This document shows positions 2,715 to 50,203 of a stretch of DNA of 64,000 nucleotides, piece by piece. The notes below the pieces were generated by a model, which saw only the letters and a program-made list of their open reading frames with translations, was not told the origin of the DNA and did not search any database. The stretch lies in the NCBI GenBank assembly GCA_000091205.1, contig AP006486.2. One strand, 5' to 3'. The stretch comes from Cyanidioschyzon merolae (Eukaryota). Made by a program: the position numbers and the translations under genes. Position 1 is the first letter of the stretch; every line of letters starts with the position of its first letter.

Positions 2715-3713
2715 ATATTCTCTCTGAATTAGCGAATAACGGAAGACTACACTCGTTCACAAATTCCCTAGGAAAATACTTGCCAGTGTACATATATGCG
2801 GTGCTCTGGTTGTTCAGGTTCGCCGCACTGAACCGCTTCAGGGCGCTGAGCTAGGCGGGGATCCATTCCCGCTGCCCCTGGCATATGAGTCGCTATCGTC
2901 GACAGTTCCCCAGTGTTTAGGTGTCATGCCTATCTGGCGTACGAAGCGATGTTCGTGGTAGCTCGCTCCACAGAGCCTCTCGCGACGCTCTGGATGCACG
3001 ACACTTTGTCGGTTGTCGATCGAGACGTTCAAGCGTCGGTGCAGAGAACGCCTAGCGCCGTGCGCTACCAAGTCCACGACCCGACGTGTCGTTCATTTCC
3101 GTTCCCAAACCGGTGCAGAAGCTTTCTCTCGATTGCACGCTTCCTGGCTCCGGATGACCGAGACCGGGGCGACTCCAGCGCCGTCGTCATGGACGTCTGC
3201 CACGGGATGCTCGTGTGACCTCTCTGGAAGCTCCTGTACGGACTGCATGGAGCGTGCAAGGCATCCCGCGCTGCTCAGCCCGGTGCGTAGCGTGTCGGGT
3301 GAGCACCCGGCGCCTGCATGTTGCTTCTTTGTATGCCACGTGGCGTCCACAGCGCTCGACTTTCGAAGATTCCGGGCACAGGTCGAGCTGAGCAGCTCCG
3401 TCTGGTTTGCTGGTCAGGCGTTCGGCTCCGTGCTTTTGGTTGCTCCGTGTGCGGCGACAGCCGTGAAGCGCCTTACCCGCGGATAAACGCTGAAACCAGA
3501 ATCTTTTTCCTGGTCTACCTGGATCGGTTGAGAAAGAGTCTCGTTGCGCACCGCTGGGCGAGGCCTCACCAAGTGCATCCAGACTGATGGTTTGTCGCTC
3601 TGCATGCTCCCGCAGACCGTTCTTCATTTCCTGGGAGTAAACGAGAAACATGGAATGAGCGCAACAGACGCTGTTTGCGAATCTGTTCCAATGCATCGTC
3701 GTTTCTTGCCAAG
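2715..3713. repeat. ~1.0 kb dispersed repeat R1, copy A (direct repeat of 8062-9060, ~98-99% identical)
   Basis: The track ORFs 2838-3077(-) and 8185-8424(-) are identical 79-aa products. The 101-aa ORFs 2913-3218 and 8260-8565 differ at 2 residues. Nucleotide identity starts at atattctctctgaattagcg and ends at gtttcttgccaagacca. Flanks diverge on both sides. Confidence 0.8.
2838..3259 (-). other. Frameshifted AraC/XylS-type HTH-like reading inside repeat R1 (possible pseudogene relic)
   Basis: The minus-strand reading ...RKRAIERKLL... (frameshift) ...VSIDNRQSVV...CGASYHEHRFVRQIGMTPKHW fits the C-terminal HTH_18 consensus (RlerAkxLL ... IAxxvGFsSxSyFsRxFKKxxGxTPsxYR). It is split over two frames and conserved in both R1 copies. 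Confidence 0.2.
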
Positions 3714-8061: not shown

Positions 8062-9060
8062 ATATTCTCTCTGAATTAGCGAATAACGGAAGACTACACT
8101 CGTTCACAAATTCCCTAGGAAAATACTTGCCAGTGTACATATATGCGGTGCTCTGGTTGTTCAGGTTCGCCGCACTGAACCGCTTCAGGGCGCTGAGCTA
8201 GGCGGGGATCCATTCCCGCTGCCCCTGGCATACGAGTCGCTATCGTCGACAGTTCCCCAGTGTTTAGGTGTCATGCCTATCTGGCGTACGAAGCGATGTT
8301 CGTGGTAGCTCGCTCCACAGAGCCTCTCGCGACGCTCTGGATGCACGACACTTTGTCGGTTGTCGATCGAGACGTTCAAGCGTCGGTGCAGAGAACGCCT
8401 AGCGCCGTGCGCTACCAAGTCCACGACCCGACGTGTCGTTCATTTCCGTTCCCAAACCGGTGCAGAGGCTTTCTCTTGATTGCACGCTTCCTGGCTCCGG
8501 ATGGCCGAGACCGGGGCGACTCCAGCGCCGTCGTCATGGACGTCTGCCACGGGATGCTCGTGTGACCTCTCTGGAAGCTCCTGTACGGACTGCATGGAGC
8601 GTGCAAGGCATCCCGCGCTGCTCGGCCCGGTGCGTAGCGTGTCGGGTGAGCACCCGGCGCCTGCATGTTGCTTCTTTGTATGCCACGTGGCGTCCACAGC
8701 GCTCGACTTTCGAAGATTCCGGGCACAGGTCGAGCTGAGCAGCTCCGTCTGGTTTGCTGGTCAGGCGTTCGGCTCCGTGCTTTTGGTTGCTCCGTGTGCG
8801 GCGACAGCCGTGAAGCGCCTTACCCGCGGATAAACGCTGAAACTAGAATCTTTTTCCTGGTCTACCTGGATCGGTTGAGAAAGAGTCTCGTTGCGCACCG
8901 CTGGGCGAGGCCTCACCAAGTGCATCCAGACTGATGGTTTGTCGCTCTGCATGCTCCCGCAGACCGTTCTTCATTTCCTGGGAGCAAACGAGAAACATGG
9001 AATGAGCGCCACAGACGCTGTTTGCGAATCTGTTCCAATGCATCGTCGTTTCTTGCCAAG
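8062..9060. repeat. ~1.0 kb dispersed repeat R1, copy B (direct repeat of 2715-3713)
   Basis: See copy A. The identical 79-aa minus ORF (8185-8424) and near-identical plus ORFs are present. Confidence 0.8.
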
Positions 9061-10136
9061 ACCAACCGCTAAAAGAGCGGACGATATCCACTGGCAAGCA
9101 ATTCGATACCAGTGTCGTTCGGCCTTCATGATAACCGTTGGAAAGGAGGATACGATTTCCGTATCTTCCAACGTTTGCCTTCTATGCCGAAGTGCCCGTG
9201 TGCCGGACGAGTATGCTGGGCCAGTGCTGCATGCTGCCCCCAGGGGTGGGTGCAGTTGCGCCACCTGAACAACTCGCCCGCAATGCAGTTGATTCTCGGA
9301 TTCAGGGCAGTTCGGGTGTGTCTCGAAGTCGCCCAGGTTGCAGTTATCTCCTAGTACACCGCATCGCGCTGCCGCATGCAGTAGGTCTGTCTGCGCAGTT
9401 TGCAGGCGCCCAGAATGATGTAGAGTGCCGACCCCGTGTCGGATGAACGACGCCTCGAGCCGACATGCCCATTGGTATGGCAACGCTGCTCTGTCTTTGT
9501 ATTGCATCCGCACTTGCGGTATAAGCGCTACAACGGGTGCAGCACTGCATGCACTCGGCGCGAGAGATACCATAACAAACGACCAGTGTATCCTAAAGAA
9601 AGTATGGGCCATGGAACCTGAAGGTACAGTGCGTCATGATGAATACGTTCCCGAATGCCTATATCCCTCATTTGATCTTGGGTATACGTTCAATGTAAAC
9701 CTTTAGTCGAACAAAAAATGGAAACGCTGCATAGGTGAATGAATAACGCAACATCCGCTCAAACCGTGCTACTGGCCGGCCAGTCTCCTCCGGAACGCTC
9801 ACATCATTCTATCAAGAGAATAACGATTGTGAACACACACTCGCCATCGACGGGCTTCCAGTCTGGCTCAGCATGGTCCCGTTACCATAACCCAATCGTT
9901 GCGTCTGTGCTAGTTTTCAACTTTCACTTGTTCAGCGCGGTAGTTTTCTCAAAAAAGTGCGCCGTTTCCGCTACGCCGAGCAGTTGCGTCACTCTCAGAG
10001 AAAAACGGTCGCAAGTGTAGGCGAGGCGTTTGTAACTGGACCACGTGTCCGGGGAGTGTCTGGCACCTGGTCTGTGGGGCGACTCCCTCAAAAGCTACAG
10101 CGGAGTCAGCATCAAGACTGGTTGCGTGTCTCGAGG

Positions 10137-18607: not shown

Positions 18608-21097
18608 CTTGAGGGCGTCGAATCCCCAATCACATCATGCAGTTAGGTATTTGGCTGTTTTGTGCGTCGGTATTCTCGGTTCACGCATCATGGAGCATGC
18701 GGGTGACTGGAGGCTCGTGATACATTCGCATGTGTGCGCATGAAGACGTGTGGGCATTCGGACTTGCAGGATCGACGCAGACTCGCGTGCGTTGGTGGTA
18801 GCGGCTTTCATGGGATGCAGCATCATCGTATGGTGCCAAGCGAGCCATCTTCGTTTACATGAAGCGATCGTTGCATGGATGGATCGACAGGTGTCTGATA
18901 TTGGAAGCGGGCGACGAGCGGGCGCTCAATGTCCCGCAGGACTCCCGCTCGATGTCGATCTGTAGCTGGTGGATATCTCGCAGCCGCTAGCGTCCTGGGA
19001 GCTACAGACAGCGAGTATGGAGCTCGTGATCGGCTCGAGGGCAGGCGCGCCTGCCTCCGGTCGTGTCTAGCGGTCGCTGGGCGTATTCCATTCAAGTTCA
19101 GCGGAAACAGTGCCTCGGGGGTTGTTCTCCAAAGCTCTCTGAGTAAAAAAATCATCCATGGTCGTGCGTTCTTGATCGAATGGAATGGTGTTTGCACTGA
19201 TTCGTGATCTATGAAAGGCGTGTCCAGAAAACAGGACACGTCACAGGGCTGTGAACGGTTCCCACGTGAAAATACACAAGTTTCCGGGTATTGGAAAGTG
19301 CTGCGCAGACAGTCACCGTGATTCGTGAACGTCTCCAGAGAAGCATCTCGTTCGTGTGTCCGGGGCGAGAAGCTGCTTGGGCGCGCGACAGCATTTACGC
19401 TGACGCATGCGTGGCCAGAAGCGTCGATGTTCTTGGCTGAAATGCTCGGCACGAGTCGGGCTCAAGTCTGGCTCCCTCGATGCCAGGTCGAACGTTATGC
19501 GCAGAACGGGAAAATCTGGAACACCTGGACCAGCACGCCACGTTTGCCTTTCTTGAGGGTATTCAACGAAGGCGTGCATCCTGTAACTTAGAGAATGCCT
19601 GACGGCTTTCTTTACGATGCCATTGCTAGCTTGCGAATATCTGATCGAACTTGTACAAGTAAGGCATTCCATCGTCGGCAAATGGATGACCCATCGTTTG
19701 CGGCGTCCGCATACTCCATATCGTTCGCTCAGAACGGAACCAGTATAAATCTATTCACAGGATTGTGTGCTCGTCCATCGGAGCCAATCCATTGCTTTTC
19801 TAAGAACTACCACGGAATAAGCCATATGATGTGAAGTTTCCATATAGTAGAGACGACCAGTGATGCAGATACGAATGGACAAGTTAAGAAACACGCTAGT
19901 AGTCGCACTGGTCGCACGTTGAGCAACACACGATCGATTCCGTACTGAAACGCGAACAGTTTGGGCACGACAGACGGGTATTCATCTCGCTCGATGAGAT
20001 TCTATTCCGCAGAAATCGTACATCTGCGTGTGGATACTCAACGAGCGGCAATGCAATGTTTGCAAAGAAGACACAGGCGAGCTTCGCGACTCTACCAGGC
20101 CAAGCGGCGATGTCGACGGGTGTTCGCATACAAACCTTCAAACAAGAGGAGCGTTTCGCACTCGATGCGTCACCTAAGCAGTCTTCGTGCATTCGCCTTC
20201 CCACATTCTTCCGTCCTGCTCTGAGATAACGTCGCTTTCCATCAATCTACACGGTAACGGAGATCGTAGCTGAGACTGTTGGTAAGCGAAACTTGATGCC
20301 AGCCTATGCTCAGTGGTTTCATCCATCCGGGCGCGTCTTCTCTATCGTCAAACGCCATTTTTATGTTCGACGATCAATAGACGAGTCATTCGAATCTGGG
20401 ACCCCAAACTTCTTCGACAAGTCGTTCTCTAGCTCCACCAGCCCGCAACTGCGCAGTTGCTTCTCTGCTCGTGCGTGCTTGGGGGTGAAAGGCCAGCTCT
20501 GGTCCACGGGCGTGCTCCCGATGGAGGAAATGACGAAAAAATGCGAGGAGCTGTAGATATACACCCAGAAGAGGCGAGTCTCGGTGGCAAAGTCCACCCA
20601 GTGCGCACGGGCCGTGGCAAAAACGAACGGATATACCGTATACCGACCGCGTTCCTGCCAAACCGCCAAGTAAACGAGAAGAAGAAGAAACCTCCGCATC
20701 ATGAAGAGAAAGATCCTCCTAAAGACAGTACGAGCATTGAGAGAGGGCAAAAAGTGTGAGGCCAGAGGGATTCGTCAAATACCTCTGTCGAGGACGCTCT
20801 ACGAAAATCCATCGACGGGGAACGTTTCCCGGAAATGTGATACAGCAAGGCACCAGTGATCGTAGAGTCTTGTCCTGGAGGAATGCTCACGCAGCGCCTC
20901 TCGACTTGAAGCACCTGGTAATGCCATTGTCCATGCGCGTTCTGAACGCCGGGCTTCTAGCTGCCTGCGCTCCTCTGGATTTTTTCAATCAAACCGTTGT
21001 GCAATTTCTGATGCTGGGGATAGATATTGTGAGACGGACTGAGACGCTCAGGGCTCGATATGATCCCGAGTTGGACGTGGCAGACGCCACGGGACAA

Positions 21098-21991
21098 ACC
21101 AGCGAATAGTAGGTCGGCACCAGGACCCGTGCCAATGCCCCGAACCCTGTCCTGGACAGAGGCGATGCTGCATACGCTTCATTCAGAGAGTACATGCGGG
21201 TCCAGATTTTTCGACCAGACGATCTTTGCTACAAGGACCGGAGAGCATGCTGGCGTCCTCAACAACCGATTCCGTTGCTCCATATCACGAGGCGGTCACT
21301 CGCCAACCTCTTCATTGAGATGAAGAACAACAGCACCGATGCGTCGCGTCGTTTGCTCGAGACCTCTGACGCGGCACGTTTCGGAGAGCGCAACAGCTTC
21401 ACGTTTGTCCCTTTGATGGACGGGTACAACGCGTGCAGGGATCGGTGCTGCACGATGCCCATTGATGGCTTCGGAGCGAGATTCACACATCTCGAGCGCA
21501 AACTGGCGCTGAAGCGGGCATCCAGGGAGAGCGTAAAGCAGCGACACATCCACGATGTGGTGTCCGGAAGCATGACCGAGCGTCAGCCTGCCACGAAATC
21601 GAAAGCGAGTAACTTGCCGAGCTGGGACTCTACCAGAAACCATGTGCACAAGTCCTTTTTTCTGCGCAGAGACTTGAACGCCTCAGTGAACGCCAGAAAC
21701 TATTTTGTGCTTCCGGATTGATCATCGAGTTTGCATTTTTGGCGGTCATCATGTCATTCACCAGGGTGGTACTTGGATGAAACGCCGAACCCCTTCGATG
21801 AACTCATCGGTCGCCACGAGCGACAGACTTCCATCCCGGCCTGGAACGAGGTACGCGTACATGATGGAACGGCACGGCGAACGCTGGAAATCCAGCACAC
21901 CCGGATCTCCGTCTCTGGACACTGGAAAAGGCCCCGCATGCCAATGGGTGCACTTTCATGGCGCTCCACGATTCACCATTACCGAGTACGT
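21098..21991 (+). mobile_element. ~0.9 kb repeat element E2, copy 1 (TnpB-like C-terminal fragment ORF plus ~270 nt 3' non-coding tail)
   Basis: ~98% identical to 32744-33621. The 175-aa ORFs differ at 4 residues. The copy starts at aaccagcgaatagtagg (stop codon at the left edge) and ends at ...ccattaccgag. Flanks are unrelated. Confidence 0.6.
21194..21721 (+). CDS. ORF of element E2 resembling the TnpB/Fanzor C-terminal region (RuvC-II-like, zinc-ribbon-like, RuvC-III-like); probably non-autonomous or degenerate
   Basis: LANLFIEMKNN is a candidate RuvC-II Glu. SFTFVPLMDGYNACRDRCC matches the V..VDpxYTSqxCsxCG pattern. LRRDLNASVNARNYF matches hRDxNAAxNI. It aligns to the same segment of the 38598 ORF (FVTIPVDEFRTSYT / SRDFNAAINV). 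Motif-level only. Confidence 0.3.
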   Translation: MRVQIFRPDDLCYKDRRACWRPQQPIPLLHITRRSLANLFIEMKNNSTDASRRLLETSDAARFGERNSFTFVPLMDGYNACRDRCCTMPIDGFGARFTHLERKLALKRASRESVKQRHIHDVVSGSMTERQPATKSKASNLPSWDSTRNHVHKSFFLRRDLNASVNARNYFVLPD

Positions 21992-25523: not shown

Positions 25524-25624
25524 CCCAGTGAGCCACGCTCTCCCCTGCACCGCACACCAACAACGAACGCCTCAAAAGACAAAAGTTGCTGCAGGCAGTG
25601 TACAGTAGTGCGGAGAAACCCGCC

Positions 25625-26381
25625 CTAGACAACTCGTCGCCAACTGACTTGCAGACGCCTCCTGGTCTTTTCGGACCGGCCACCTACAACTGATTCCATC
25701 TTTTTCTCATATAATTCAACTTTTAGAAGTTGTCCCACAAAGTTCGCTCGTGTCGACGCTGGAGGTCTCGTCTCCAGCATCGCACTTTTCCTTATATGGA
25801 TTGCTGCGTTACAGCCTCGGTTCATAAACTCCATTCGTTTATTGCCGCTGGTGGAAGTCACCATTTTAAGGAGTCCTTGAAGTCGTGCCTTCCGTTCCAT
25901 TTCATTTGCTGTCACCTCACCGTACTTTTCTATATCTTCTAGGATTTGCTGGCTCTTCCCCGTCTCGGCCGTCTGAATTGTACGCCCCAGTTCATCCCAT
26001 AATATTTTAAAATCAAGGCACTGCTTTATGCATTTAGCTGAGGACATTCCCGGAGGAGATAGCACTTGCGCAGAAAGGACGACAGGTGCCCCGGTAGTGT
26101 TGTATGCTGAGCGCTTCAGCGATTCGCTCCATGCATCGATCGATACGTTTCACGATACAAAACACTCCCTCAATGGGGTAGACCAACGGAAACCACTAAA
26201 GAATGAAAACCAGCTCTATCCAGACAGAATCGGCAAGATCTCGAACGCAACAGGAATGATGAAATGCCAGTTTGTCCCGTAGAAGGACGTCGTTAGACGT
26301 CAGGGAAAAGGGACCCTTAATTCGACAACGTGGTTGAACCTGTTGTACGAGGCTGCTCTTCAAGTTCGATCTTATACACAA
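25625..26381 (-). pseudogene. Decayed TnpB/Fanzor-like relic related to the 38598-39752 ORF (frameshifted, internal stop, inactive RuvC-III)
   Basis: Minus reading ILEDIEKYGEVTANEMERKARLQGLLKMVTSTSGNKRMEFMNRGCNAAIHI...TRPPASTRANFVGQLLKVELYEKKMESVVGG aligns colinearly with RTPEDIAKYGPLTEEQMERMAKVRGLLALGSTINGKKRMEFVSRDFNAAINV...RRPPELKRENFTGQSLKVELYERKLEAVVAG. SRD has become NRG. Upstream, ..AYNTTGAPVVLSAQ (matching KGTTPAPTIRT) follows an in-frame TGA at ~26150, and an earlier segment is in another frame. Confidence 0.5.
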
Positions 26382-29688: not shown

Positions 29689-32600
29689 TTCCAGTCAAAA
29701 CTTCAACGGTGATAGCGCAGGCTAAAAGCGCTCGTTCCCTTTGCAGAGGCCTCGCTGAGCGTCCGAACGCCAAGGTCAAGCGCTCGAGCGGGGATGGGGT
29801 ACGCTTCAAGCGCCGCGTCTGCGCTGCTCGTTTCATAAAAGGGTCAGTTGGATACCGGCAGGTTTCTGCTGCCACAGCCGAATACGTCACGATGTGCCTG
29901 AAACCTGTACGGACTCCAGGAAGGAAACGAGTGCTTTTTAGGATTAGAAATTAACTGCGGAGCTTTTGAATTGCGACAAAAACAGCACGACCAGGAAAAG
30001 CAGTTGACGTTGGGTTGCACGCTCGAACGTGTACAACCCGCGGACGATTCTGCTGAAGATGCGAACTGGGAACCGAATATCGAAGAATTATCTTTATTAT
30101 TAGGAAATGTTCAGGTTTCGCGAGATCAAGGCTAAGACAGCGTACCAGATTTACGCGTTGAGTTGATCTCACGAGTTGCCGGCAGCAGAGGTGTCTGAAT
30201 GAAGCAGCAACCTAGCGGTACGTTGGCCCGCGCTCCAGTGGGAACCCGGGACCCTGCAGCAGGCTGCGGACGCTTCCTCATGGTCATCGTGAACGTTTCT
30301 ACACGCTGAACGCTTTGAACAAGTGCATCGACGGTTGGTCGGAACACTTTGCGTCACGTCTGGTGGACGGCACCTCGCTATGCGCACAACGCTGCAACAG
30401 CGCAGTGTGTGCCAGCGTGTCGCTCACCAAAGATGCCTGGTAGTTGACGGCAGTGCTGCGTTTTGGCAGTGTCGTGCATCCTCGAAAGAAGAAGCGAAAG
30501 CGACAAACGTCCCTGATTCATGGCAGATGCTGTGGTATGGAATGGAGCCGGATGCAAGTTGCGACTGAACCGGCGATTCTATGCTCCTTTGACGTAAAGC
30601 AGAGCGTGTTGGAACACCTTTGCCAGAACGGACTTTCGGTTTGTGTTTTGTTTCACACAGGTATTCAAGAAATGGGTTGTATCCTGTAGATTGGAGAAAG
30701 GTCGCGCAAAGAGATTGTATGAAGTCATTGCGAGCTTGTGAAAAGAAACAGTTTTTCTCATACGAGTCAGTCGGTCCACGGTCAGCCGGCAGATGCGCTG
30801 CCCGGCCTCGTTGTCCTGGTTCTAAGCGCCGCGTACTCAAAACAGAAGTTATTCAACCCCATTTGCTTCGCTGTTTGGTCGACAATCCATTACAATCTGT
30901 CCGTTCCTTGAGGATTACTACTACTGGAGAATCAACAGAATAGGCCGTGTTCGCACCGCTGAAGCAAATGTTAATAAAAGAGCACCGATGGGCAAAGGAA
31001 GTGAAAGCATGCTTCACTGGGAGGTCATCGCGTGCTGACCAACATGCCGTTGATTTCGTACGAGGACACGAACGCTTCTGCTTTCAGGTACCAGGGGCGC
31101 GCTTCTCAATCGATCATGCTTGATCCGGGGAGAAATTGCGGACGTGCACATGGGTCATTAAAATGAGGTACAGCGCTGTACGTAAACAGAACACGAGCGG
31201 ATTCGACGATTCCATCAGACCGAGTGGCAATCGAATGTCGTGGTCGTGTACAAACTGACAAGCAGACACGATAGGTTCACACTTGATCCTTCATCGATGG
31301 AGGCTTCGTGAGCTCGCCTCCCTGAATTCTCTCCCCTGCTCGCAGACAATGTCACTTTACATCATTCAAAAGTGGTCACGGATTATGCATCCGGTATTTA
31401 CGAGGATCACCTCTTCATGCCATTGTATTTATCCTGTTCCATTCAGTCGGAGGTGTTATTTCTGTCGTTCAACGCCATTTTTACGCTCAAGGATCAATGA
31501 ACGAGTCGTTCGCACCAGAAACACTGAGGGATGTAGGACGCCATTACGCATAGCAAAGCCTATGATTCGAAGAAGGCTCGCCTTGCTTTCATCTTTTCAA
31601 CGCACCTCGTCAGGCAAATATTTCTCGTAGTTCCGCATACAGGGCTATCTACCGCCCGTATTCCTCAGGAATCTTTCGATCTAGCTTTCGTGCGACAGCA
31701 CAACTGATGCTCAGGAGAGAAGATGCAGTACAGGATGATCGCGTGATCAGAGATTTGCGCGCTTGCTTTTCAGAATACCTGGACTAGTTGCCGCACCACC
31801 TAGGCGGTCGGAGCATTTACCGCGCAGGTGCCGAGAAGCACCAAATCATCCGCCTATACCAAAAGCATACGCGGGTCATTCACCGGAGCTTCATGAAGCG
31901 CGCCTTGAGCGCGTTGTCGCTTCTCTCTACTGACCGAGAAAAGCGGGGTCGCATGAAAGGGATTCTCGGGATGTACGTGGAGGCAACAAAAACTGATTCT
32001 TGCTGAAGAGTTCAGAGAGGTAATGCGTTTAGGAGATATGTCGCAGGGGGCGCGAACATCGCCAGCACTCGCCCAGTCTCATCATGTTGCTTCGTGCCTC
32101 GACCGACAAACGTTGCATCGGAAGGATAGTTCGTATATCTGACGTCTGGCTCTCTCGCGTCTTGCGCTACTACATGTTCCTGCAAAATGCGTCACAGAGT
32201 GAAGCGGACGCCCCCGCCATATCCGAGTAACGTAGCCTCGTCGAGCGTCCATTGGATGCGGTGCTCACACATGTCGGACCAGGGGGCATTCCAACGCCGT
32301 AGAGACTTGTGAATTGTACCGCAGTGTATGAAGGTCTGCGCGGTCAGCTGCGACTGGTCCCTACCCTCAAGTATGAATCATTCGACAGCTTTGCCAAGGG
32401 CATTCACTGGGCGAATTCAAAATTGCCCATGACTAGGGAGTAATTCGAAAGCATTTACCGGGTTTGCAGAGACCGACGGAACATCAGCCTGCATGCACGC
32501 TTCCACGCCTATGCTTCATTCGAGCAACGGATCGCATTTTTAACCGTTCAAGTTGGATGAAGGAGAGATTTCGTGGCGAGCGCGAATGCCTGGGTGAAGG

Positions 32601-32743
32601 GCAACAAGGCGATCGCCAAGCCTCAAAGTCAAGAGGACGGATCCAATATCCCGAACGGGAACCAGATGAAGTTCCTCAATGGTTCATGGACCCGGTATAA
32701 TCGAGCGCCGGGCATGACGGACGATCGGTGAGAAACCAGCGAA

Positions 32744-33621
32744 TAGTAGGTCGGCACCAGGACCCGTGCCAATGCCCCGAACCCTGTCCTGGACAGAGGC
32801 GATGCTGCATACGCTTCATTCAGAGAGTACATGCGGGTCCAGATTTTTCGACCAGACGATCTTTGCTACAAGGACCGGAGAGCATGCTGGCGTCCTCAAC
32901 AACCGATTCCGTTGCTCCATGTCACGAGGCGGTCACTCGCCAACCTCTTCATTGAGATGAAGAACAACAGCACCGATGCGTCGCGTCGTATGCTCGAGAC
33001 CTCTGACGCGGCACGTTTTGGAGAGCGCAACAGCTTCACGTTTGTCCCTTTGATGGACGGGTACAACGCGTGCAGGGATCGGTGCTGCACGATGCCCATT
33101 GATGCCTTCGGAGCGAGATTCACACATCTCGAGCGCAAACTGGCGCTGAAGCGGGCATCCAGGGAGAGCGTAAAGCAGCGACACATCCACGATGTGGTGT
33201 CCGGAAGCATGACCGAGCGTCAGCCTGCCACGAAATCGAAAGCGAGTAACTTGCCGAGCTGGGACTCTACCAGAAACCATGTGCACAAGTCCGTTTTTCT
33301 TCGCAGAGACTTGAACGCCTCAGTGAACGCCAGAAACTATTTTGTGCTTCCGGATTGATCATCGAGTTTGCATTTTTGGCGGTCATCATGTCATTCACCA
33401 GGGTGGTACTTGGATGAAACGCCGAACCCCTTCGATGAACTCATCGGTCGCCACGAGCGACAGACTTCCATCCCGGCCTGGAACGAGGTACGCGTACATG
33501 ATGGAACGGCACGGCGAACGCTGGACACCCAGCACACCCGGATCTCCGTCTCAGGACACTGGAAAAGGCCCCGCATGCCAATGGGTGCACTTTCATGGCG
33601 CTCCACGATTCACCATTACCG
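32744..33621 (+). mobile_element. ~0.9 kb repeat element E2, copy 2
   Basis: Near-identical to 21098-21991 over the whole length, with the same ORF set (32831-33358, 33342-33641). Confidence 0.6.
32831..33358 (+). CDS. ORF of element E2 copy 2 (TnpB-like C-terminal fragment; see 21194-21721)
   Basis: 175 aa, 4 substitutions relative to copy 1. The YNACRDRCC and RRDLNASVNARNYF motifs are retained. Confidence 0.3.
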   Translation: MRVQIFRPDDLCYKDRRACWRPQQPIPLLHVTRRSLANLFIEMKNNSTDASRRMLETSDAARFGERNSFTFVPLMDGYNACRDRCCTMPIDAFGARFTHLERKLALKRASRESVKQRHIHDVVSGSMTERQPATKSKASNLPSWDSTRNHVHKSVFLRRDLNASVNARNYFVLPD

Positions 33622-34616: not shown

Positions 34617-36707
34617 TTAGGCAGCGCTCATGTCACCGCTGGCCAACTGCTTCTCAACGAGTTGGTAGTAGAATCCTGATGGGCCCAGAGCCATGAGCTC
34701 CGAGTGGTTGCCTTGTTCAACCACGACACCATCCTGCATTACGAGAATGAGGTCTGCACGCGCCACTGTGGACAAGCGGTGGGCAATCACAACGCTGGTA
34801 ACGCCGTCAGAGGCCATCATCCGATCCAGCGCCTCCTGAACGAGAGCCTCGCTCTCTGCATCCAGAGCGCTGGTGCTTTCATCCAAGCAGAGTAGCGTTG
34901 GATGCTTCAGAATCGCTCGAGCGATAGCGATGCGTTGTTTCTGGCCGCCGCTTAACGCCAGACCTCGCTCTCCGACCTCGGTATCCAGTCCATCGGGTAA
35001 TGCCATAACAAAAGAGTACGCATTGGCTTCGCGCAAGGCCTGAATGACCTCCTCATCTGTAGCATCTCGTTTGCCATAGAGAATATTATCGCGGATGGTT
35101 CCAGAAAATAGAACCGGCTCCTGCGAAACAAGCCCAATCTGACTACGCAAGGCGTGAAAGTCGTAGTTCCAGGCGGGCGTACCGTCGAAGAGCAAGAGAC
35201 CGCCGCCTTGCGGTTCGATATCGTAGAAGCGCATCAGGAGCTGAATAATGGTCGACTTGCCGGCACCGCTTCCGCCGACAATAGCGACCGTCTTTCCATT
35301 AGGGATTGTCAGGGAAATCCCTCGTAACACTTCCACGTTCATTCGTGTCGGGTACCGGAAGTGGACGTTCTCGAAGACAATGCCTTGCTTCAGTACCAGA
35401 GGCTGCGTGACGACTTCAGCGCCGGGGTCAGGACGTCGGTACTGTGGTACACGGTCGATCATTGCAAAGAGCTCGCCACCAGCACCGAGTCCGCGGGTGA
35501 CGTCAGGCCAGACCTGAGCCGCCTGACCGACTCCCATGAAGCCGAGTATGGCGCTGAAGAATGCAGTTAGCAAATTACCCAGATTCAGAGAGCCGCGAGC
35601 GATCAGTTGCCCGCCCCACCACAGGGCAAGCGCATAGACACAGAAAATCACCAACATAGACAGTCCAAAGAAGAGACCGTCTGAGATGTAGCGTCGCCTC
35701 CCCAGACGGTACAAGGGATCAAGCTTGCTGCCGTATCGTTGCGTTTCGTAGCGCTCTGCCTCGAAGGCTTTGGTCGTGCGAATATTCGAGAACACCTCCG
35801 CTGCAACCGATCCAGCACTCGCATACGCTTCAGAGCTTCTTTTCGTATTGCCACTCATCTCGATCATCTGGGCGGCACCAGCGAGCACAACCAACGGTGA
35901 GAGCGCGATCAAGACGCCAGTGAGGGCAGGCGCGAATATAAACGCCACGATTATACCGACAACGCATTGGGCGAGATTGAATAAAACCGCACCGAGTTTC
36001 GAGAACGAGTACTGGATGACCTGAACGTCGTTATTCAGCTTTCCACCGAGCTCACCAGCTTTGCGGCGGTCGAAATAAGTCACGTCTTGCTCGACCAGGT
36101 TGCTGAAAGCCGCGACTCGCAGGTCCCGAGCTAGACGTTCGCTTGCGATCCCAAACAAAGCCGTTCTTGACCCGGCTACGATGAACTCGAAGACACCGAT
36201 ACCGACGAATCCAACGGAATACTTCCATGTTTCGCCTTCGATCTGGCTTTTGCTCTTCGTGAAAACTTGAAACATTCGACCGAATACAATCGCGAACGCT
36301 GGTAGCGTTGCTCCTTCCAAAATAGAAGCAATGAATCCGATAACAATCATAGTTGCAGACGAGCTCCAGGCAAGCGCGAAGATTCGCCGTGCAGTCACGC
36401 CCGTGGTGTAAGCGCTCTCCGGACCAGAGGCCTTTGCCGCCTTTTTAGGGTCGCCTGCCTCGGGATCTTCACCAGCAGCCGACGGGCGTGCCCAAAACCG
36501 CCACCAACGTCGGTTAGGTGTGTCCTTCTCCTTCAATTTCAAACTTGGAAAAGATTCTTGAAACGCGGTCGCCTCCGAACTGACCGCAGTGTCCGGCGAC
36601 ACCGGGTCCGTCTCGTAAATTGAGCTGCTGAGGGTTCGCTCGCGGTGGTTTTCACCAACGCTGCTGTAGTTCGCTGTTTCAAAGCTTTGCGCTGCGTGAG
36701 CGTTCAT
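34617..36707 (-). CDS. ABC transporter, ABCB-type half transporter (TMD then NBD)
   Basis: ATG at 36707 (minus). Six TM helices are followed by Walker A VAIVGGSGAGKSTIIQLL, the ABC signature LSGGQKQRIAIARAIL, Walker B LLCLDESTSALD and the H-loop VVIAHRLST. Confidence 0.88.
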   Translation of the reverse strand: MNAHAAQSFETANYSSVGENHRERTLSSSIYETDPVSPDTAVSSEATAFQESFPSLKLKEKDTPNRRWWRFWARPSAAGEDPEAGDPKKAAKASGPESAYTTGVTARRIFALAWSSSATMIVIGFIASILEGATLPAFAIVFGRMFQVFTKSKSQIEGETWKYSVGFVGIGVFEFIVAGSRTALFGIASERLARDLRVAAFSNLVEQDVTYFDRRKAGELGGKLNNDVQVIQYSFSKLGAVLFNLAQCVVGIIVAFIFAPALTGVLIALSPLVVLAGAAQMIEMSGNTKRSSEAYASAGSVAAEVFSNIRTTKAFEAERYETQRYGSKLDPLYRLGRRRYISDGLFFGLSMLVIFCVYALALWWGGQLIARGSLNLGNLLTAFFSAILGFMGVGQAAQVWPDVTRGLGAGGELFAMIDRVPQYRRPDPGAEVVTQPLVLKQGIVFENVHFRYPTRMNVEVLRGISLTIPNGKTVAIVGGSGAGKSTIIQLLMRFYDIEPQGGGLLLFDGTPAWNYDFHALRSQIGLVSQEPVLFSGTIRDNILYGKRDATDEEVIQALREANAYSFVMALPDGLDTEVGERGLALSGGQKQRIAIARAILKHPTLLCLDESTSALDAESEALVQEALDRMMASDGVTSVVIAHRLSTVARADLILVMQDGVVVEQGNHSELMALGPSGFYYQLVEKQLASGDMSAA

Positions 36708-37600
36708 AGTACATATGACGGAAAAACGTATCTTCTTCCGTTACGACACGCAAAATAAGAAACGTCGTCGTCACTAGAACACAAACGACTGTTCACACCA
36801 GACGTAACGCTTTGGCAACCCGAAGGTAACGCGAACGATGCGACGCTCGGTACTGTGCTCTGTACCCAGCATCAAATCTGCGGCAGATTCCGCATCGCCA
36901 CAGAGAGGCGTTTCTGTGGACACCGTCGGTTGACCCGCGTGTGTTCGACGCGAGCATCCGCGGTGGTGGTGGTGGTGGTGGCAGCGGCAGCGGCGGCGGT
37001 GCTGGTGATCAGACAGCGCCCCCCGCGGCTCAAAATTTCGACGCTGCGCGCGAGGCGACCGTTCCTTCCGGCGCTGTGTGGATTCCCTGCCCGATGACAG
37101 CACGTTTCCGTTGACCACGGATGCCGGCATTCGGGATGGATATTCGCTTTCGGGAAAGCGTCTACTAGGAAGCACCTACCTTCAAGTTCCATTCCCCGTA
37201 CTTCGTCTCGTATGCACTGGTCGTTTCGTATGCTCTGTCGTGTGCCGAGTGCCTGCCTCGAGCACTCGCCGTAGCGCTTATACCGCTGAAGCAGGTGCTG
37301 CACGGAGACAGAACGGCGTTGCCATACCGCAGAGGGCGTCGGCTCGCGGAATCCTACATGTGACACGCAATCACGGCGAATTCTCATTCCGGGAGCCTGC
37401 AAGATGCGCAGTCAGAAGCGCTGCCTGCGATAGCGCGAGGCGATAGACGAAGAGTCCACTGGGACCTGGGCGACGCCCAGATGCAGCATCCTGCTCCTAC
37501 TCCCGAGCTGAACGAAATTGTGAACGAGTTGCTCAGATCTGACTAAAGTACCTGCCACTGGGAGAAGCATGAAGCACGAGCCTGGGATCCTGTCTTAATT

Positions 37601-39757
37601 GATATATCAAGTATCTATCAGAGCGAAAGTTGCGGGTGGGCATGAGAAACCGTGCGTCGAGTCGTACTCCGTGAGTATCATAAAGGCTTCCTCAGGAATA
37701 ATGCTTTTGGTGAAGGCGATGTATCGCGACTTGACGCAGATCGAAACAGTCGAGGTTTCGGAGGAGGAATTTTTCGACAAGAGCTTTCATCGTCACCTGA
37801 TGCTTGGCACAGGGGAAGCGCGGAGCAAAAAATAAGTGAGTGCACGCCCTCCACGAACACCACGCCGAATACCGCTTCAGCGGTGCTCCATACAGGGGTG
37901 ACTCGCGAATTTACGAATACGCGGCGATGGAGTACCGCACGAACCTGAAGAATCACGTGGTCGTGAAACTCGAACGTTTCATGATACGCTCCATCTTTGC
38001 GTAGTATCCGGGCCTCTCTCGCAAAGGAATATGCGCGATCATCGACAGCATCACGAACGATTGTCAGCATGAACAGGAGATCGAATTCGTCGACAAGAAG
38101 GCGTCATATAGGAGAAGGAATGAGGTTTCTGTAATCCGCGCCACTATTGAAGAGAACCGTGCGGTCTTGGGGCCGGCGAATCCAGCAGAAAAGGTATCAG
38201 ATATGAAATAAACATGGAAAAAGATGTTATCCTTTAATTCTGCTCGATTTCGTATTTTTGGACCGAGAATCCGAACGCAAGGCGGAGATGAAGCTGAGTG
38301 AGGAAAAAATGAAGAGTGGGAGAGACGGAAGGCTGTCCGAATGGGGAAGCGCTTCAACGTCGTTCCAATGTGCAACATCAAGTCACATTTTGTGACTGTC
38401 GACTCCAGAATCCTTCATGACTTCATGAAAGAGATCAGTCCCGAGCTCAATGTTAGCAGGGAGGGGTTCTCCGGCGAAAACCGGGTGACGTTCTGCAAGA
38501 GAATCTTCGATTTCAAACGTCTCAATGTGAGCAAACAAGGGGTATTACTGGGATGATCGAAACCGATGTAGTGGCCATGTGTGTACACTAGCGGCGCTTG
38601 AAGAAAGATCGTCCAGTTCCGTCTGTGACGAAAGATGAAGATAAGAGGAAGGCGGATCCTGCGACACAGAAAGTTCAGGATAACTTTTTTGTCGTTGGCG
38701 CAGACCCTGGGAATACGAATATCATAACCATCGCTGTACCCAAACGTGCGGAAGATGGTACTGACGGCAACTTACGTCAGAAACACATACGTCTTTTGAG
38801 GTTCTCGAGAGCGAGATACTATCGAGAATCCGGTATAATGAATGCAAGGAAGAAAATTGATACGTGGAATGCAGGAATGAAGGATCACCTCGAAGTTTTG
38901 GGCGAGGTGACGAGTCGAGGAGCGGACTTTGAAGCTTTTCGGAAATTCATGGAAATACGCGTTGCTCATTGGGATGCCTTGTGGGAGGAGTGTACCAAGC
39001 CCCGGTGGGCTCGTTTGCGTATGAATCTGCACTGTGGGAAGCAGCGGGCGTTTGCCAACTTTTTCAATCAGTTGAGCGCTCTGAAGAGGAATGAAAGTCA
39101 GAGGCTCGTAGTAGCGTACGAAGCAGGGCGCTGGAAGACCCAAAAGGGGACCACGCCAGCCCCAACGATAAGAACGTACAAAGAGTGCGCAAGGCGTTTT
39201 GTTACGATACCTGTAGATGAGTTCCGAACGTCCTATACACATCACGAACTGGGGTGTACACTTCAGAGGGTCGAGATGGAAAGGTGCCAGCGGACCCCTG
39301 AGGATATCGCAAAGTATGGACCGCTGACGGAAGAGCAAATGGAAAGGATGGCGAAAGTTCGTGGACTGCTTGCATTAGGAAGCACCATCAATGGCAAGAA
39401 ACGTATGGAGTTTGTGAGCCGGGACTTTAACGCCGCGATCAATGTAACGATATGCGCAGCGATGGAAAGGAGACCTCCAGAGCTGAAACGAGAGAACTTT
39501 ACTGGACAATCACTCAAAGTCGAACTATATGAGAGAAAGTTGGAGGCAGTAGTCGCTGGCCCGCCGAGCAAGGCTGGGAGGCATCTGCACATCCGTTGGA
39601 GACTTCTTGTCCTGGGCGAGTTTCTCGCCACCACTGTACACTGCCGGCAGCAACGTTTTTTCTTTTGGAAGTTGTGTGTCGTCGTTCTGGCACTGGAATG
39701 GAGTTCATTCACGACGCCTTCGGACGAGGCGTACGTTCGTTATCCCACTTGAATATC
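37601..39757 (+). mobile_element. Putative Fanzor/TnpB-bearing transposon-like insertion (~2.16 kb), AT-rich 5' half
   Basis: There is a sharp GC-to-AT shift at ~37595. The left end GATATATCAAGT (37601-37612) and right end ACTTGAATATC (39747-39757, reverse complement GATATTCAAGT) form an imperfect 11/12 inverted repeat with one indel. The right inverted repeat overlaps the ORF stop (TGA 39750-39752). GC-rich host sequence resumes after 39757. Confidence 0.4.
38598..39752 (+). CDS. TnpB/Fanzor-like RuvC nuclease (OMEGA family); RuvC D-E-D triad intact; N-terminal WED/REC region not in this ORF (possibly intron-split or degraded upstream)
   Basis: RuvC-I FFVVGADPGNTNIITIAV (Asp codon 38703-38705). 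TnpB-like helical linker ARLRMNLHCGKQRAFANFFNQLSAL. RuvC-II LVVAYEAGRW (Glu 39120-39122). YKECARRFVTIPVDEFRTSYT with a degenerate zinc ribbon (HHELGC…RC). RuvC-III SRDFNAAINV (Asp 39423-39425). The track start is TTG, with no in-frame ATG before residue 79. Confidence 0.65.
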   Translation: MKKDRPVPSVTKDEDKRKADPATQKVQDNFFVVGADPGNTNIITIAVPKRAEDGTDGNLRQKHIRLLRFSRARYYRESGIMNARKKIDTWNAGMKDHLEVLGEVTSRGADFEAFRKFMEIRVAHWDALWEECTKPRWARLRMNLHCGKQRAFANFFNQLSALKRNESQRLVVAYEAGRWKTQKGTTPAPTIRTYKECARRFVTIPVDEFRTSYTHHELGCTLQRVEMERCQRTPEDIAKYGPLTEEQMERMAKVRGLLALGSTINGKKRMEFVSRDFNAAINVTICAAMERRPPELKRENFTGQSLKVELYERKLEAVVAGPPSKAGRHLHIRWRLLVLGEFLATTVHCRQQRFFFWKLCVVVLALEWSSFTTPSDEAYVRYPT

Positions 39758-39780
39758 CAGTGGGTGCGCACAAGGCGCTG
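39480..39780 (+). ncRNA. Candidate omega-RNA (Fanzor guide RNA) scaffold overlapping the ORF 3' tail and right end; the guide would derive from flank 3' of 39757
   Basis: The ~85-codon post-RuvC-III tail is not protein-like but is conserved at the nucleotide level with the relic copy. One block, tttctcgccaccactgtacactgccggcagcaacgttttttcttttgg, versus tttctccgcactactgtacactgcctgcagcaacttttgtcttttga, is ~88% identical over 47 nt. A local stem cctcag/ctgagg lies at 39845-39890. Placement follows TnpB/Fanzor biology. Confidence 0.3.
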
Positions 39781-42700
39781 AGCTGCTCCATTTTTTGTGT
39801 GCAGCGTGTTCAGATGATGCATGCTGCAGTTTTTCGATATTCATGCCTCAGGGTAACGCTGCGCAGCATGTCGACATCCTGTCTGAGGGCACGAAAAAGT
39901 CGGCAGCGTCGTTCGACGTGTTCAAAAGCTCGTGCCGCATCAAGTTACGGGCACCACACGATTCATAAATCCGCATCATTTCGTTGCCGTCGACGAAACC
40001 GCATGCGACATCCCCATCGTATTGCTCCGGGGATATGCAACCGGGCGTTTCCGTCTCTTCTGTTTCCATGGAAAAGGATCTCACACTCGGATTTCCCACA
40101 TTGCAGCAATCGCTTCCCATGGAGCATGCGTCACTGCTCTGCACGTTAGCAGCATCGACGGATCGAAGGTTATTGATGCGATCTCCGGTCTGGAGTTCGC
40201 TTCTGGATTTTGTCTCATCAGGATTGACATTGACTTTTACAAATCCCTTATTGAATGCGGTAGTGCGCGAATGCCCGATAACGTACTCGCCGAGGCAATC
40301 GCTCAGAAGAAGCAGGTCGTTTCAGGGTAAACCATTGGGTAAGGGAACCGAAGGCATCTACAGGGACCTCGCAAAAGCGTAAACGGTGCGATGAAACCAG
40401 TCTGAGCGCGCCACGGGCTGGTACTCGTAGCAAGTTGTATGGTCGGCGTACCGGACCACCTGACTGCATCCACGTGTCACCGCTGAGGAGGGCGCTCCAA
40501 AGCTGTCCACAAAGAGTACGAGAATGGCACGCAAGCCGTGTGTCGGAACTTTCGTCTGTGCAAGCAATGCGTCGTCAACGGACGTAAGCAGCGTGATCAT
40601 GAATTGACCGCTGTCATCATGATCATCATCATCCTTCGAATGCAGATCACGGAGCTCATGTAAAGGCTCAGACTGGCGTATTCGAAGCCCGAGCGAACCG
40701 AGTGAAACCGAAAGCAGTCACGGGAGAGATGTCCGCAAAGGCTGGTGCGAATTACAATTGGAAGAGACCCAAACTCCATCGTTTATGCCCGTATTCGAGG
40801 ACCTATTCCGTGTTATGCTGACATATGTCTAGTCGCTTTGTTGAACGTGAGACTAGTTAAGGGGTTCCAAGCGGTCTCAGCGCATGCATGCCCACAGGAG
40901 CGCGGCTCCACCTGCCTCGCTATTCCTGGAGAAAGCGCTGTCAAGCGAGTACGCTGACGGCTACGCGATCAGACAAGATGCCTCATACGCCGTCTCCATG
41001 AGGCGCTTCGCAGGATCCCCACGGGTGTCGGCTGCGTATGCAACTAGCGTTCAAATGCTTCACCGTTGTCTTTGAGGAATCAAGCAGTTCTACCGAGGTA
41101 AACGTCTTCGTGTATCTAAGTTCGTACCGCAAAATAGCCGCACAAATCCAGGTGTGGTAGCGACAGCTCCGCAATCATAGACGATAAAAAATGAGCATTG
41201 CCTTTTCTAATGAGGCATTTATCGACTCTGCCGCCAAGAGTCACTCGTGATCATGGACGCACGCTCACGAAGCCTTGCACATCGCATGTGAAGAACTCGT
41301 GCTGCGTCCCTTGGGCAAGGAAGCTGCAGGCTTTGCGTTCGAAAAGCCTCAGATTTGGCTATTGTTCAGTTGCCCCCTATCATAAAAACGCATTTCCATG
41401 GTGAACAAGAATATCCCGCCGCACATTGGAATCGATTTTTGTCGATTCCCTGACTTGGCGTTCGCACCGACTTCTCAGCCACAGTTGCCACTCCAGGCAT
41501 CGTCGCACTTGGTTACGGGATTTCTATGGACGACACCCATCGACGGACACCATGCCGAGTCCTATTCTCGATACACGAACCGCTACACCACCGGAACATG
41601 GTCATGCGTTCGTGAGCATGCAAGTGCAGGCATTGTGACCCGCGCATATGCGCCACGTTCCCAGTCAAGACGATTCGTTAGCGTCTATACATCTGCGAAT
41701 TTCGAACCACCACATATATTCCCCATAAAGAGCCGACTCGATCGCAGCGAGCACGCCTCGCAATGATCTCGCATTCACCAGCTTCGGCGTTTTGGCAGGA
41801 TGCTCCTGGTGTCGTGTTCGGCAGGGAGCGTAGATCAGGACAGGCGGTCTCATTTAGAGAAACGTACATGAATCTCTACGCTTTGCCAGGTTGGAATTGG
41901 ATCCGTACGGTTTCGGATGCAGCAAGAGTCGCAGCACAACCAGCCGATTCATGATGGTCAATGATCGGCAGTTTCCAGCCTTGGTCGCGTCGCTGATGCG
42001 CATTGGCAAGCGTTGTGTACGCCCCCGGTTGAAAAAGGTGCATCCGTAGACCGCGAAGATGCTGACACGGAAACGTAAACAAGGCCAGTAGGCATCAACT
42101 ATTGCTACTGGAATCATGGCACTTGAGAGAGCAGCGCATACCCGCTTCTGTGACTTGGTGCTTTGGGCGGAACCGCACTGTACGCACTTTCTGGGCTATT
42201 CGGGCCAATGAATATCGAAACAGAACATAAGATCCAGAAGAGCTCGTCGTGAAGGTGCTCAGTTCCAACCAGGTCAAGAGTCGCGGGAGCCGATGAATCG
42301 CATCAGAACTTGAGTCAGCAAGAACGTAGCGCAACTGCTCCAGCGTCGTCGCTAACCTTGTTTCACAGACTCCGTTTGCGACGTTGTGACAGCTTCGTAT
42401 CACGACTCCATACGTTGAGCAAAGAGCGTGCAGGTCTCGTGCTTGCGCTAGCGGAACGCACGAACTCGGCGATGACTCTTGCGGACGCCAGTCGCGAGTA
42501 TACAGTTGTCTTCCATCGCTCAGCACTGTCGTTCCTCCAGCGATGGAAACAAAAAACTCTCCTCAAACAAGAGCATCTGAAAGCTATCAACCTGGTTCCA
42601 AAAAAGTTCCACCAGAGAACCGTTTCATTGTATACCTTGTCTAAAACGTTCGACAACTCGCCCGTCAAGCGGCTCAGAGGCGAGCAACTCGTCTACGACA

Positions 42701-49287: not shown

Positions 49288-49295
49288 TTAGGGAT

Positions 49296-49685
49296 ACAGG
49301 AATGGATCTATAGAATACATATCCAATGGAAAGGATACTGGAGGGATACAGGAATAGATCTATAGAATGCAGATCCAATGGGAAGGATACAGGAGGGATA
49401 TCGGAATGGATCTATAGAATACAGATCCACTGGGAAGGATACTGGAGGAATACAGGAATGGATCTATAGAATGCAGATCCAATGGAAAGGATACTGGAGG
49501 GATATCGGAATGGATCTATAGAATACAGATCCACTGGGAAGGATACTGGAGGGATATCGGAATGGATCTATAGAATACAGATCCACTGGGAAGGATACTG
49601 GAGGGATATCGGAATGGATCTATAGAATACAGATCCACTGGGAAGGATACTGGAGGGATATCGGAATGGATCTATAGAATGGGGG
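49296..49685. repeat. Minisatellite, ~7.5 copies of a 52-bp unit (ggatctatagaatacagatccactgggaaggatactggagggatatcggaat)
   Basis: The gatc landmarks recur at 49305, 49357, 49409, 49461, 49514, 49565, 49617 and 49669 (period 51-53), with minor variants. Confidence 0.85.
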
Positions 49686-49893: not shown

Positions 49894-49951
49894 GTGCGTG
49901 TATGCGTGTGTGCGTGTATGCATGTATGCGTGTATGCGTGTATGCGTGCAT
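49894..49951. repeat. Microsatellite (GCGTGTAT)n, imperfect
   Basis: gtgcgtgtatgcgtgtgtgcgtgtatgcatgtatgcgtgtatgcgtgtatgcgtgcat. Confidence 0.8.
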
Positions 49952-50203
49952 AGGTGTTGAAGGTCACCAAATTCCATGCATGAGGACGGACATGGGTGTC
50001 GTGGACTTGTAACCTCTTTCTCTTGAGCGCTATGGAGCTTTTTGATAGGTTTCTTTGATTCTGTCTCGTTACCAGGAAAAGAACATGTGCTGCTCCTTGA
50101 AGACGGACAGGTATGTGTCTACGCTCGTGTGTATGCGTGTTGCACCTACTGTATGCAACTAGCTAAAACGGAACTACACAATTCGGGTAGCGTCTAGTTA
50201 CAC

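Follow-up and report, generated by a model that had tools for sequence, protein, structure and literature searches.

The open reading frame (ORF) at positions 38598–39752 on the plus strand of a 64,000-nucleotide stretch of the genome of the red alga Cyanidioschyzon merolae (contig AP006486.2, assembly GCA_000091205.1; the whole stretch is referred to here as the window) is, judged by alignment, the C-terminal RuvC half of the gene for CMe-1, comprising codons 392–734. CMe-1 is the Fanzor1 protein encoded by the published mobile element CMe-1A. The insertion to which the ORF belongs spans 37092–39674 (+), and we consider it very probably a dead, neutrally decaying copy of CMe-1A, with the ORF being the surviving RuvC half of its gene. 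Because the copy has no start codon, no region for a nuclear localization signal (NLS), and no intact REC/WED half, it cannot make a working nuclease. Fanzor1 in C. merolae has been in the literature since 2013 in the form of CMe-1A and CMe-1, and the window copy does not represent a new family. As a pseudogene copy of a known family, the locus has little value as a discovery. Its lesson is one of annotation: long RuvC-like ORFs in the C. merolae genome should be masked as CMe-1A relics and not called as genes.

Identity with the Published Element CMe-1A

CMe-1A is the sole Fanzor1 family listed for C. merolae (Bao & Jurka 2013, Mob DNA 4:12; PMC3627910). Its consensus is 3,169 bp long; the genome contains about 150 copies, which individually match it at about 80% identity. 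The element has no terminal inverted repeats (TIRs), its target-site duplications are given as undetermined, and it encodes the 734-aa protein CMe-1. The 5′ 635 bp are common to the non-autonomous element TE-N2_CMe (PMC3627910). The CMe-1A DNA consensus and the CMe-1 protein consensus used here were taken from the supplements of Bao & Jurka 2013.

In blastn comparisons, consensus positions 1–494 match 37092–37585 of the window at 80% identity, and consensus positions 1075–3166 match 37589–39671, a length of 2.1 kb, at 85.8% identity. An identity of about 80% between the window element and the consensus is usual for the approximately 150 copies of CMe-1A. At the protein level, tblastn aligns CMe-1 with the ORF at 79.6% identity over 372 aa and places upstream segments of the protein in other frames; along the locus, the frames read 3, then 1, then 3. 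A protein search with the ORF returned 204 relatives at 58–98% identity, nearly all of them metagenome proteins. So many relatives in this range of identity constitute a pattern typical of a repeat family, and 381 family relatives were confirmed in metagenome contigs.

Anatomy of the Insertion and Its Lesions

The frame described in the first-pass annotation is present at 38598–39752 (+) as 384 uninterrupted codons, together with the motifs GADPG, VDEFRTS, and SRDFNAAINV and the helical segment reported for it. The TTG listed as its start is merely the first permitted codon after a stop. It was also observed correctly that the frame has no early in-frame ATG: the first encodes residue 81 and the RuvC-I Asp is residue 36, and a Met-initiated product would consequently start past this Asp. 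Both the absent ATG and the missing N-terminus are explained by an internal deletion, frameshifts, and stop codons in this copy of CMe-1A, all of which lie upstream of the open frame.

The insertion begins with the 5′ non-coding part, the module common to TE-N2_CMe (37092–37585; consensus 1–494). The boundaries of the blastn high-scoring segment pairs then define, at 37586–37588, the junction of an internal deletion of ~580 bp, in which consensus positions 495–1074 are missing. The consensus coding sequence runs from 906 to 3110, with its ATG at consensus 906, so the deletion takes out the start codon and codons 1–56, including a basic NLS-like stretch. The remainder of the 5′ region before the ATG is lost with it.

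The N-terminal (REC/WED) half of the gene, CMe-1 codons ~57–391, follows in broken form at 37589–38597 (+), as seen in the tblastn frames and in a codon-aware alignment to the consensus. In the latter, five frameshifting indels are found at ~37654 (+2), 37826 (+1), 38209 (+1), 38303 (−1), and 38546 (−1), and four premature stops at 37600, 37837, 38002, and 38589. The N-terminal part had been reported as missing. Some 300–400 aa are indeed not in the ORF, but they are still present in the DNA immediately upstream, in these broken frames.

The C-terminal half, RuvC with the REC2 insertion (codons 392–734), is open from 38598 to 39611, and its protein identity to CMe-1 is 79.6%. It contains in-frame deletions only, one of 12 bp at ~38619 and one of 3 bp at ~39378. 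The stop codon TAG has mutated to CTG at 39612–39614, and the ORF therefore runs through the non-coding right end of the element (39612–39674; consensus 3111–3169), which is partly decayed here, and past the element end. The consensus ends at 39674; the remaining stretch of the frame, 39675–39752, is read-through into flanking DNA outside the element and closes at the first stop met by chance. A complete Fanzor1 gene, having a start codon, an NLS region, and the REC/WED and RuvC parts in one frame, was sought in the window copy and not found.

Membership of the Family in Fanzor1

The first-pass annotation proposed the ORF as a eukaryotic TnpB homolog of the Fanzor type, to be checked by searches with hidden Markov models (HMMs) and by structure prediction. 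Used alone as a query, the ORF gave no match in Pfam, NCBIfam, or PDB sequence searches. A profile built from close relatives only (A1) gave no match among PDB structures, and Pfam scans of long relatives returned no significant family. A Pfam tag, PF26935.1, is attached to P0007, P0008, P0011, and other family proteins that include the MGKRFN...FTGxIETDG (WED) region. An exhaustive HMM search yielded 1,559 relatives. Alignment A3 comprises 35 diverse full-length clade members at 25–40% identity, and its profile matches three solved Fanzor1 proteins: PpFz1 from Parasitella (9cf0, E = 1.2e-20), SpuFz1 from Spizellomyces (8gkh, E = 1e-11), and GtFz1 from Guillardia (9cer, E = 3e-5). The HMM check thus failed for the ORF by itself and succeeded for the deeper family profile.

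The motifs D-P-G, D-E-[FY]-[RK]-T-S, and N-R-D are in register between the A3 profile and the solved Fanzor1 proteins. RuvC-I GADPG aligns to DPNKRD of SpuFz1 and DPGRRD of PpFz1, VDEFRTS aligns to DEYKTS of SpuFz1 and DEFRTS of PpFz1, and RuvC-III aligns to NRDM and NRDQ of the solved proteins.

The structural check gave a concordant result. AlphaFold2 (AF2) with a shallow multiple sequence alignment (A2) produced a mean predicted local distance difference test (pLDDT) score of 35.5, which was unusable, and this run was superseded by a model of family member P0038 made with the deeper alignment A3 (pLDDT 78.9, predicted template modeling score 0.71). The seven best Foldseek matches of the P0038 model in the PDB are all Fanzor1 proteins, with E values of ~1e-12 to 1e-8 and template modeling (TM) scores of up to 0.59. 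Cas12p, Fanzor2, and TnpB come behind Fanzor1 at E values of 1e-3 or weaker.

The link between the ORF and Fanzor1 runs through the family profile and the model of a family member, not through the ORF alone. Along this route, the family profile, the fold search, and the published classification agree, and the family of the ORF is confirmed, by profile alignment and predicted fold, as Fanzor1, located in a eukaryotic nuclear genome within a repeated mobile element. The two outcomes that had been named as fatal to the proposal, no TnpB/Fanzor match and no RuvC-like fold, did not occur, and the sequence is Fanzor-derived. The empty Pfam, NCBIfam, and PDB searches with the ORF alone, and the equally empty search with the shallow family profile, would be expected if the likeness to TnpB/Fanzor motifs were a coincidence in an ORF unrelated to RuvC nucleases. 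However, the matches of the deeper clade profile to three solved Fanzor1 proteins, the agreement of the fold search, and the 80% identity to a published Fanzor1 consensus already refute such a coincidence, to which we assign practically no probability.

Catalytic Residues and the Zinc-Ribbon Region

Fanzors are characterized by D-P-G at RuvC-I and by a conserved alternative Glu shortly before the zinc-finger segment (Yoon et al. 2023; Jiang et al. 2023), together with an inert residue, Gly or Pro, where RuvC-II canonically has its Glu (Jiang et al. 2023). The Fanzor signature of Bao & Jurka is D-X-[TS][TS]-X-X-[C4]-X-RD (PMC3627910). In the window copy, in which all of the following motifs lie on the plus strand, RuvC-I GADPG is found at 38697–38711, with the Asp codon at 38703–38705. 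Its D-P-G is the Fanzor signature at this site and, in the A3 clade, is near-invariant (D 35/35, P 34/35, G 35/35). Together with the alignment to solved Fanzor1, this bears out the reading of GADPG as a Fanzor-type RuvC-I. The helical segment ARLRMNLHCGKQRAFANFFNQLS lies at 39009–39077 in the ORF translation.

The motif AYEAG (39114–39128) occupies the canonical RuvC-II position, and its Glu had been taken as the catalytic residue of RuvC-II. This assignment does not hold. The position is Gly in all 35 clade members, and the CMe-1 consensus reads AYGAG; the Glu arises from a GGA-to-GAA change at 39121 and, on this alignment, is a private mutation of the window copy and its ortholog rather than a catalytic residue. 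By the same comparison, the RuvC-II catalytic Glu of the family is the E of VDEFRTS (39213–39233), corresponding to the alternative (rearranged) RuvC-II Glu of Fanzors. This Glu is present in 35/35 clade members, 33 residues from the Gly of AYG, and its codon is intact in the window copy. VDEFRTS had been regarded as a mere lead-in to the zinc ribbon, a description that overlooks its invariant Glu. The sequence SRDFNAAINV (39417–39446; family consensus N-R-D-F-N-A-A-I-N) was rightly designated RuvC-III, since its R-D occurs in 35/35 clade members and aligns to the solved Fanzor1 proteins. The claim of an intact RuvC triad is therefore correct to the extent that D, E, and D codons survive in the translation, but the Glu is the one in VDEFRTS and not the one in AYEAG. 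More generally, RuvC-II in Fanzors should be read with the rearranged-glutamate template; the TnpB template is the wrong one.

Downstream, THHELGC... (39237–39257) marks the start of a vestigial TNB/zinc-ribbon region from which the CxxC...CxxC cysteines are absent. In the window copy, which reads THHELGC...C, the second cysteine pair is missing, and the description of its zinc ribbon as degenerate is accurate. A CxxC...CxxC zinc ribbon was sought in the CMe-1 consensus and the 35 clade members and was found in 0/35, with PF07282 weakly matched by 7/35. Across the alignment, the absence of the zinc ribbon is a clade-wide trait and not a product of local decay. CMe-1 was classed as Fanzor1 by Bao & Jurka despite its missing C4 zinc finger (PMC3627910), and given the profile and fold evidence, the departure from the C4 zinc finger is no ground to exclude the family from Fanzor1.

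The zinc-ribbon-less Fanzor1 lineage around CMe-1 counts over 1,500 relatives, including one from the green alga Haematococcus lacustris, and has invariant D-P-G, alternative Glu, and R-D. If its members are active nucleases, they would constitute a structurally interesting Fanzor1 variant, represented here in a thermoacidophile. Family proteins such as P0002, P0011, and P0146 also contain tandem acidic repeats of ~22 aa between WED and RuvC-I, in numbers from 1 to at least 5. The repeat consensus is K-[DH]-E-[ED]-K-K-E-A-x-P-A-T-Q-E-V-x-D-N-D-F-V-V, and the repeats are predicted to be disordered (AF2 pLDDT <50). A single acidic repeat, with the 12-bp deletion, is found in the window copy (38619–38690).

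Decay of the Window Copy

A syntenic copy of the locus, L001, is present on a metagenome contig that is 99.3% identical to the window over 12.7 kb. The same disabling lesions are found in this independent assembly, which excludes sequencing error as their cause. Comparison with L001 shows 5 nonsynonymous and 2 synonymous substitutions in the element part of the ORF (6.9 differences per kb), 9.9 differences per kb in the broken 5′ half, and 6.5 and 7.7 differences per kb in two stretches of non-coding DNA from 39753 onward. The substitution density of the ORF therefore equals that of its flanks (6–10 per kb). The neighboring gene, a 696-aa ORF at 34617–36707 (−) that is identical to CmABCB1 of C. 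merolae 10D (BAM79212.1 / XP_005535498.1) and thereby identifies the window as nuclear DNA of this strain, has 1 nonsynonymous and 7 synonymous substitutions, or 3.8 differences per kb. Purifying selection on the window ORF was sought in the comparison with L001 and was not detected, the nonsynonymous-to-synonymous count of 5:2 being a small sample. In addition, L001 has a frameshift at 39656, so the tail of the ORF differs between the orthologs.

These data bear on the suggestion that the locus may encode an RNA-guided DNA endonuclease, that is, that the ORF, perhaps joined to upstream segments, specifies a functional Fanzor whose RuvC triad is intact. The family does belong to Fanzor1, and the D of GADPG, the alternative E of VDEFRTS, and the D of SRDF are all kept in the translation. 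However, this copy has neither its start codon nor its first 56 codons, its stop codon has mutated, and nine frameshifts and stops interrupt the REC/WED half, which is needed to bind RNA and DNA. The earliest ATG comes only after the codon for the RuvC-I Asp, the substitution pattern relative to the ortholog is neutral, and AYEAG owes its Glu to a private mutation at an invariant Gly position. Rescue by splicing is implausible, since introns number only a few dozen in C. merolae. A functional nuclease is refuted at the sequence level, and we regard it as extremely unlikely; with its deletion, five frameshifts, four stops, lost stop codon, and neutral substitutions, the copy is a pseudogene.

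Several observations weigh against simple neutral decay. The comparison with L001 rests on 7 substitutions only. All 9 disabling lesions are in the 5′ half and 0 are in the 3′ half, a distribution with P ~0.002 under a uniform rate, and where the ORF differs from the consensus, third codon positions are over-represented (32:30:59 across the three positions). Both the third-position excess and the lesion asymmetry might point to constraint in the past or, alternatively, to gene conversion of the 3′ half.

The family as a whole offers an explanation for both. By codon position, copies across the family are 0.875/0.896/0.813 identical to the consensus, a sequence pattern that shows past selection on CMe-1A master copies, and the third-position excess of the window copy is attributed to this selection on master copies before insertion. 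Among 64 near-full-length metagenomic copies, 0/64 are free of lesions; lesions in the 3′ half average 3.4 per copy, and this half is open in 2/64. With ~150 genomic copies and ~3% having an open 3′ half, chance alone should leave a few RuvC halves open, and these are exactly what a scan for long ORFs picks out. The 0-versus-9 asymmetry is therefore regarded as ascertainment plus chance. A division of the substitutions into private and shared ones, corresponding to changes after and before insertion, was also attempted; it is confounded by recurrent hits among ~80 copies at 15–20% decay and is not usable either way.

Past or present constraint would be expected if the open RuvC half (38598–39611) were expressed, now or recently, as a truncated or domesticated Fanzor-derived protein with a non-nuclease role, for example as a dominant-negative or RNA-binding fragment. 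Such a product would explain why the RuvC half stayed open, with 0 lesions versus 9 in the 5′ half, when only 2/64 family copies have an open 3′ half, and it would fit the third-position-rich differences from the consensus; gene callers, moreover, predicted a start at Met81 for the ortholog P0003, a protein whose 90% cluster comprises 26 sequences. Yet the 5:2 ratio of nonsynonymous to synonymous substitutions and a density equal to that of non-coding flanks argue against a maintained protein, as do the mutation of an invariant Gly to Glu and a C-terminal tail that differs between orthologs as a result of the lost stop and the frameshift at 39656. The third-position excess is put down to selection that acted on master copies before insertion, and ~3% open 3′ halves among ~150 copies predict several by chance. 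On balance, a truncated product is very unlikely.

A mosaic origin, in which a younger CMe-1A copy later overwrote the 3′ half through gene conversion or recombination, is compatible with a pseudogene. It is in line with the divergence from the consensus, 11.9% in the 3′ half versus 14.1% in the 5′ half, as well as with the lesion counts of 0 versus 9. The gap in divergence is modest, however, and is the same as the family-wide pattern of a better-conserved RuvC half; furthermore, apart from the ortholog, the search turned up no donor copy above ~83% protein identity. We consider overwriting of the 3′ half improbable, though less so than expression of a truncated protein, and favor neutral decay of a single dead insertion.

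The Ancestral Element and a Candidate omega-RNA End

CMe-1A is a ~3.2-kb element without TIRs that carries a single gene, for the 734-aa Fanzor1 CMe-1. By homology, the product of the ancestral active element would have been a nuclear Fanzor1 with an N-terminal basic NLS-like stretch, REC/WED, and a split RuvC containing D-P-G, the alternative Glu, and R-D. This protein would bind an omega-RNA transcribed from the 3′ (right) end of the element, and the complex of CMe-1 and omega-RNA would, again by homology, cut guide-matched DNA beside a flanking motif, thereby aiding persistence or spread of the element.

End features were examined at 39612–39682 (right) and 37060–37092 (left). The non-coding right end contains two conserved patches, at consensus 3122–3137 and 3150–3169. 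Three local hairpins in the right end, proposed by hand, keep register, with 76.5% of positions paired versus 34–57% when slid; their covariation is not significant (41/500 shuffles). The RNAalifold consensus of the last ~180 nt is weak (−5.4 kcal/mol, covariation term +0.25), and an Rfam scan of 36800–40200 gave no match. On the basis of patches and hairpins, the right end at 39612–39674 is a candidate for the 3′ end of an omega-RNA scaffold.

Two features of the element ends are absent from Bao & Jurka 2013. Copies at loci L002–L081 share ~6 nt (TTTGTT) past the published 3′ end and then diverge, and most of 19 independent copies have a T-rich tract, often GATTTTTTY, directly in front of the 5′ end. 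From its position, the T-rich tract is a candidate target-site or target-adjacent motif (TAM), and both features are possible refinements of the element boundaries. The right-end hairpins and the T-rich flank are minor leads toward resurrecting the CMe-1 consensus as a thermotolerant Fanzor. Helitrons have 5′-TC and CTRR-3′ ends. The ends of CMe-1A, CGATGAC... (5′) and ...GAAAGGCG (3′), mismatch these, and a Helitron-type classification of the element was rejected.

Other Repeats in the Window

Further CMe-1A material is present elsewhere in the window. A solo CMe-1A 5′ module at 9072–9708 (−), matching consensus 5–636 at 74% identity, is a non-autonomous element of the TE-N2_CMe type. It is abutted by the second copy of a 1.0-kb direct duplication (2715–3717 and 8062–9064; 99.2% identity). 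A CMe-1A 3′ fragment at 25572–25995 (−), matching consensus 2737–3163 at 80%, covers the last ~120 Fanzor residues and the right end.

A second, far more divergent Fanzor1-like relic is found at 31600–33400 (+) and 21090–21986 (+), a 0.9-kb piece being duplicated at 98.8% identity 11.6 kb upstream. It has ~30% aa identity to CMe-1 residues 425–685 (tblastn E ~1e-24), and the WED motif FTGFAETDGTSACMH is recognizable. D-P-G is lost (ASANAW), as is the alternative Glu (IDAFGARFTH); R-D is retained, and several stops are present. With one Fanzor family listed for C. merolae in PMC3627910, the family of this relic may be unreported. The window also contains a tandem array at 49290–49680 with a 52-bp unit (7.5 copies, 93% matches) and a short (TGCGTGTA)n array at 49895–49957.

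Comparison with Known Systems

The closest known system is CMe-1A itself, with whose consensus the window element aligns end to end; the two have in common the lack of TIRs and the shared 5′ TE-N2_CMe module. The window copy differs in its 580-bp internal deletion, five frameshifts, four stops, and lost stop codon, and in the Glu, private to it and its ortholog, that replaces Gly at the canonical RuvC-II position. The solved Fanzor1 nucleases SpuFz1 (8GKH, 9CEU–9CEZ), PpFz1 (9CF0–9CF3), and GtFz1 (9CER–9CET) have the same domain order and fold as the CMe-1 clade, at a sequence identity of 13–17% only. SpuFz1 and PpFz1 keep the CxxC...CxxC zinc ribbon, whereas the CMe-1 clade is without it and, unlike solved Fanzor1, has acidic tandem repeats in variable number between WED and RuvC-I. 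The solved Fanzor1 proteins are nucleases, whereas the CMe-1 clade is known here from its sequences and a predicted fold.

TnpB (ISDra2 TnpB, 8H1J) and Fanzor2 (ApmFz2, 9B0L) are more distant. Both share with the clade an RNase-H-like split RuvC core and the WED/REC/RuvC/TNB logic, and both are weak fold matches to the P0038 model (E ~1.5e-2). TnpB is much smaller than CMe-1 and retains the zinc ribbon. At the active site, TnpB has the canonical RuvC-II Glu and D-[hydrophobic]-G, whereas the CMe-1 clade has D-P-G and the alternative Glu.

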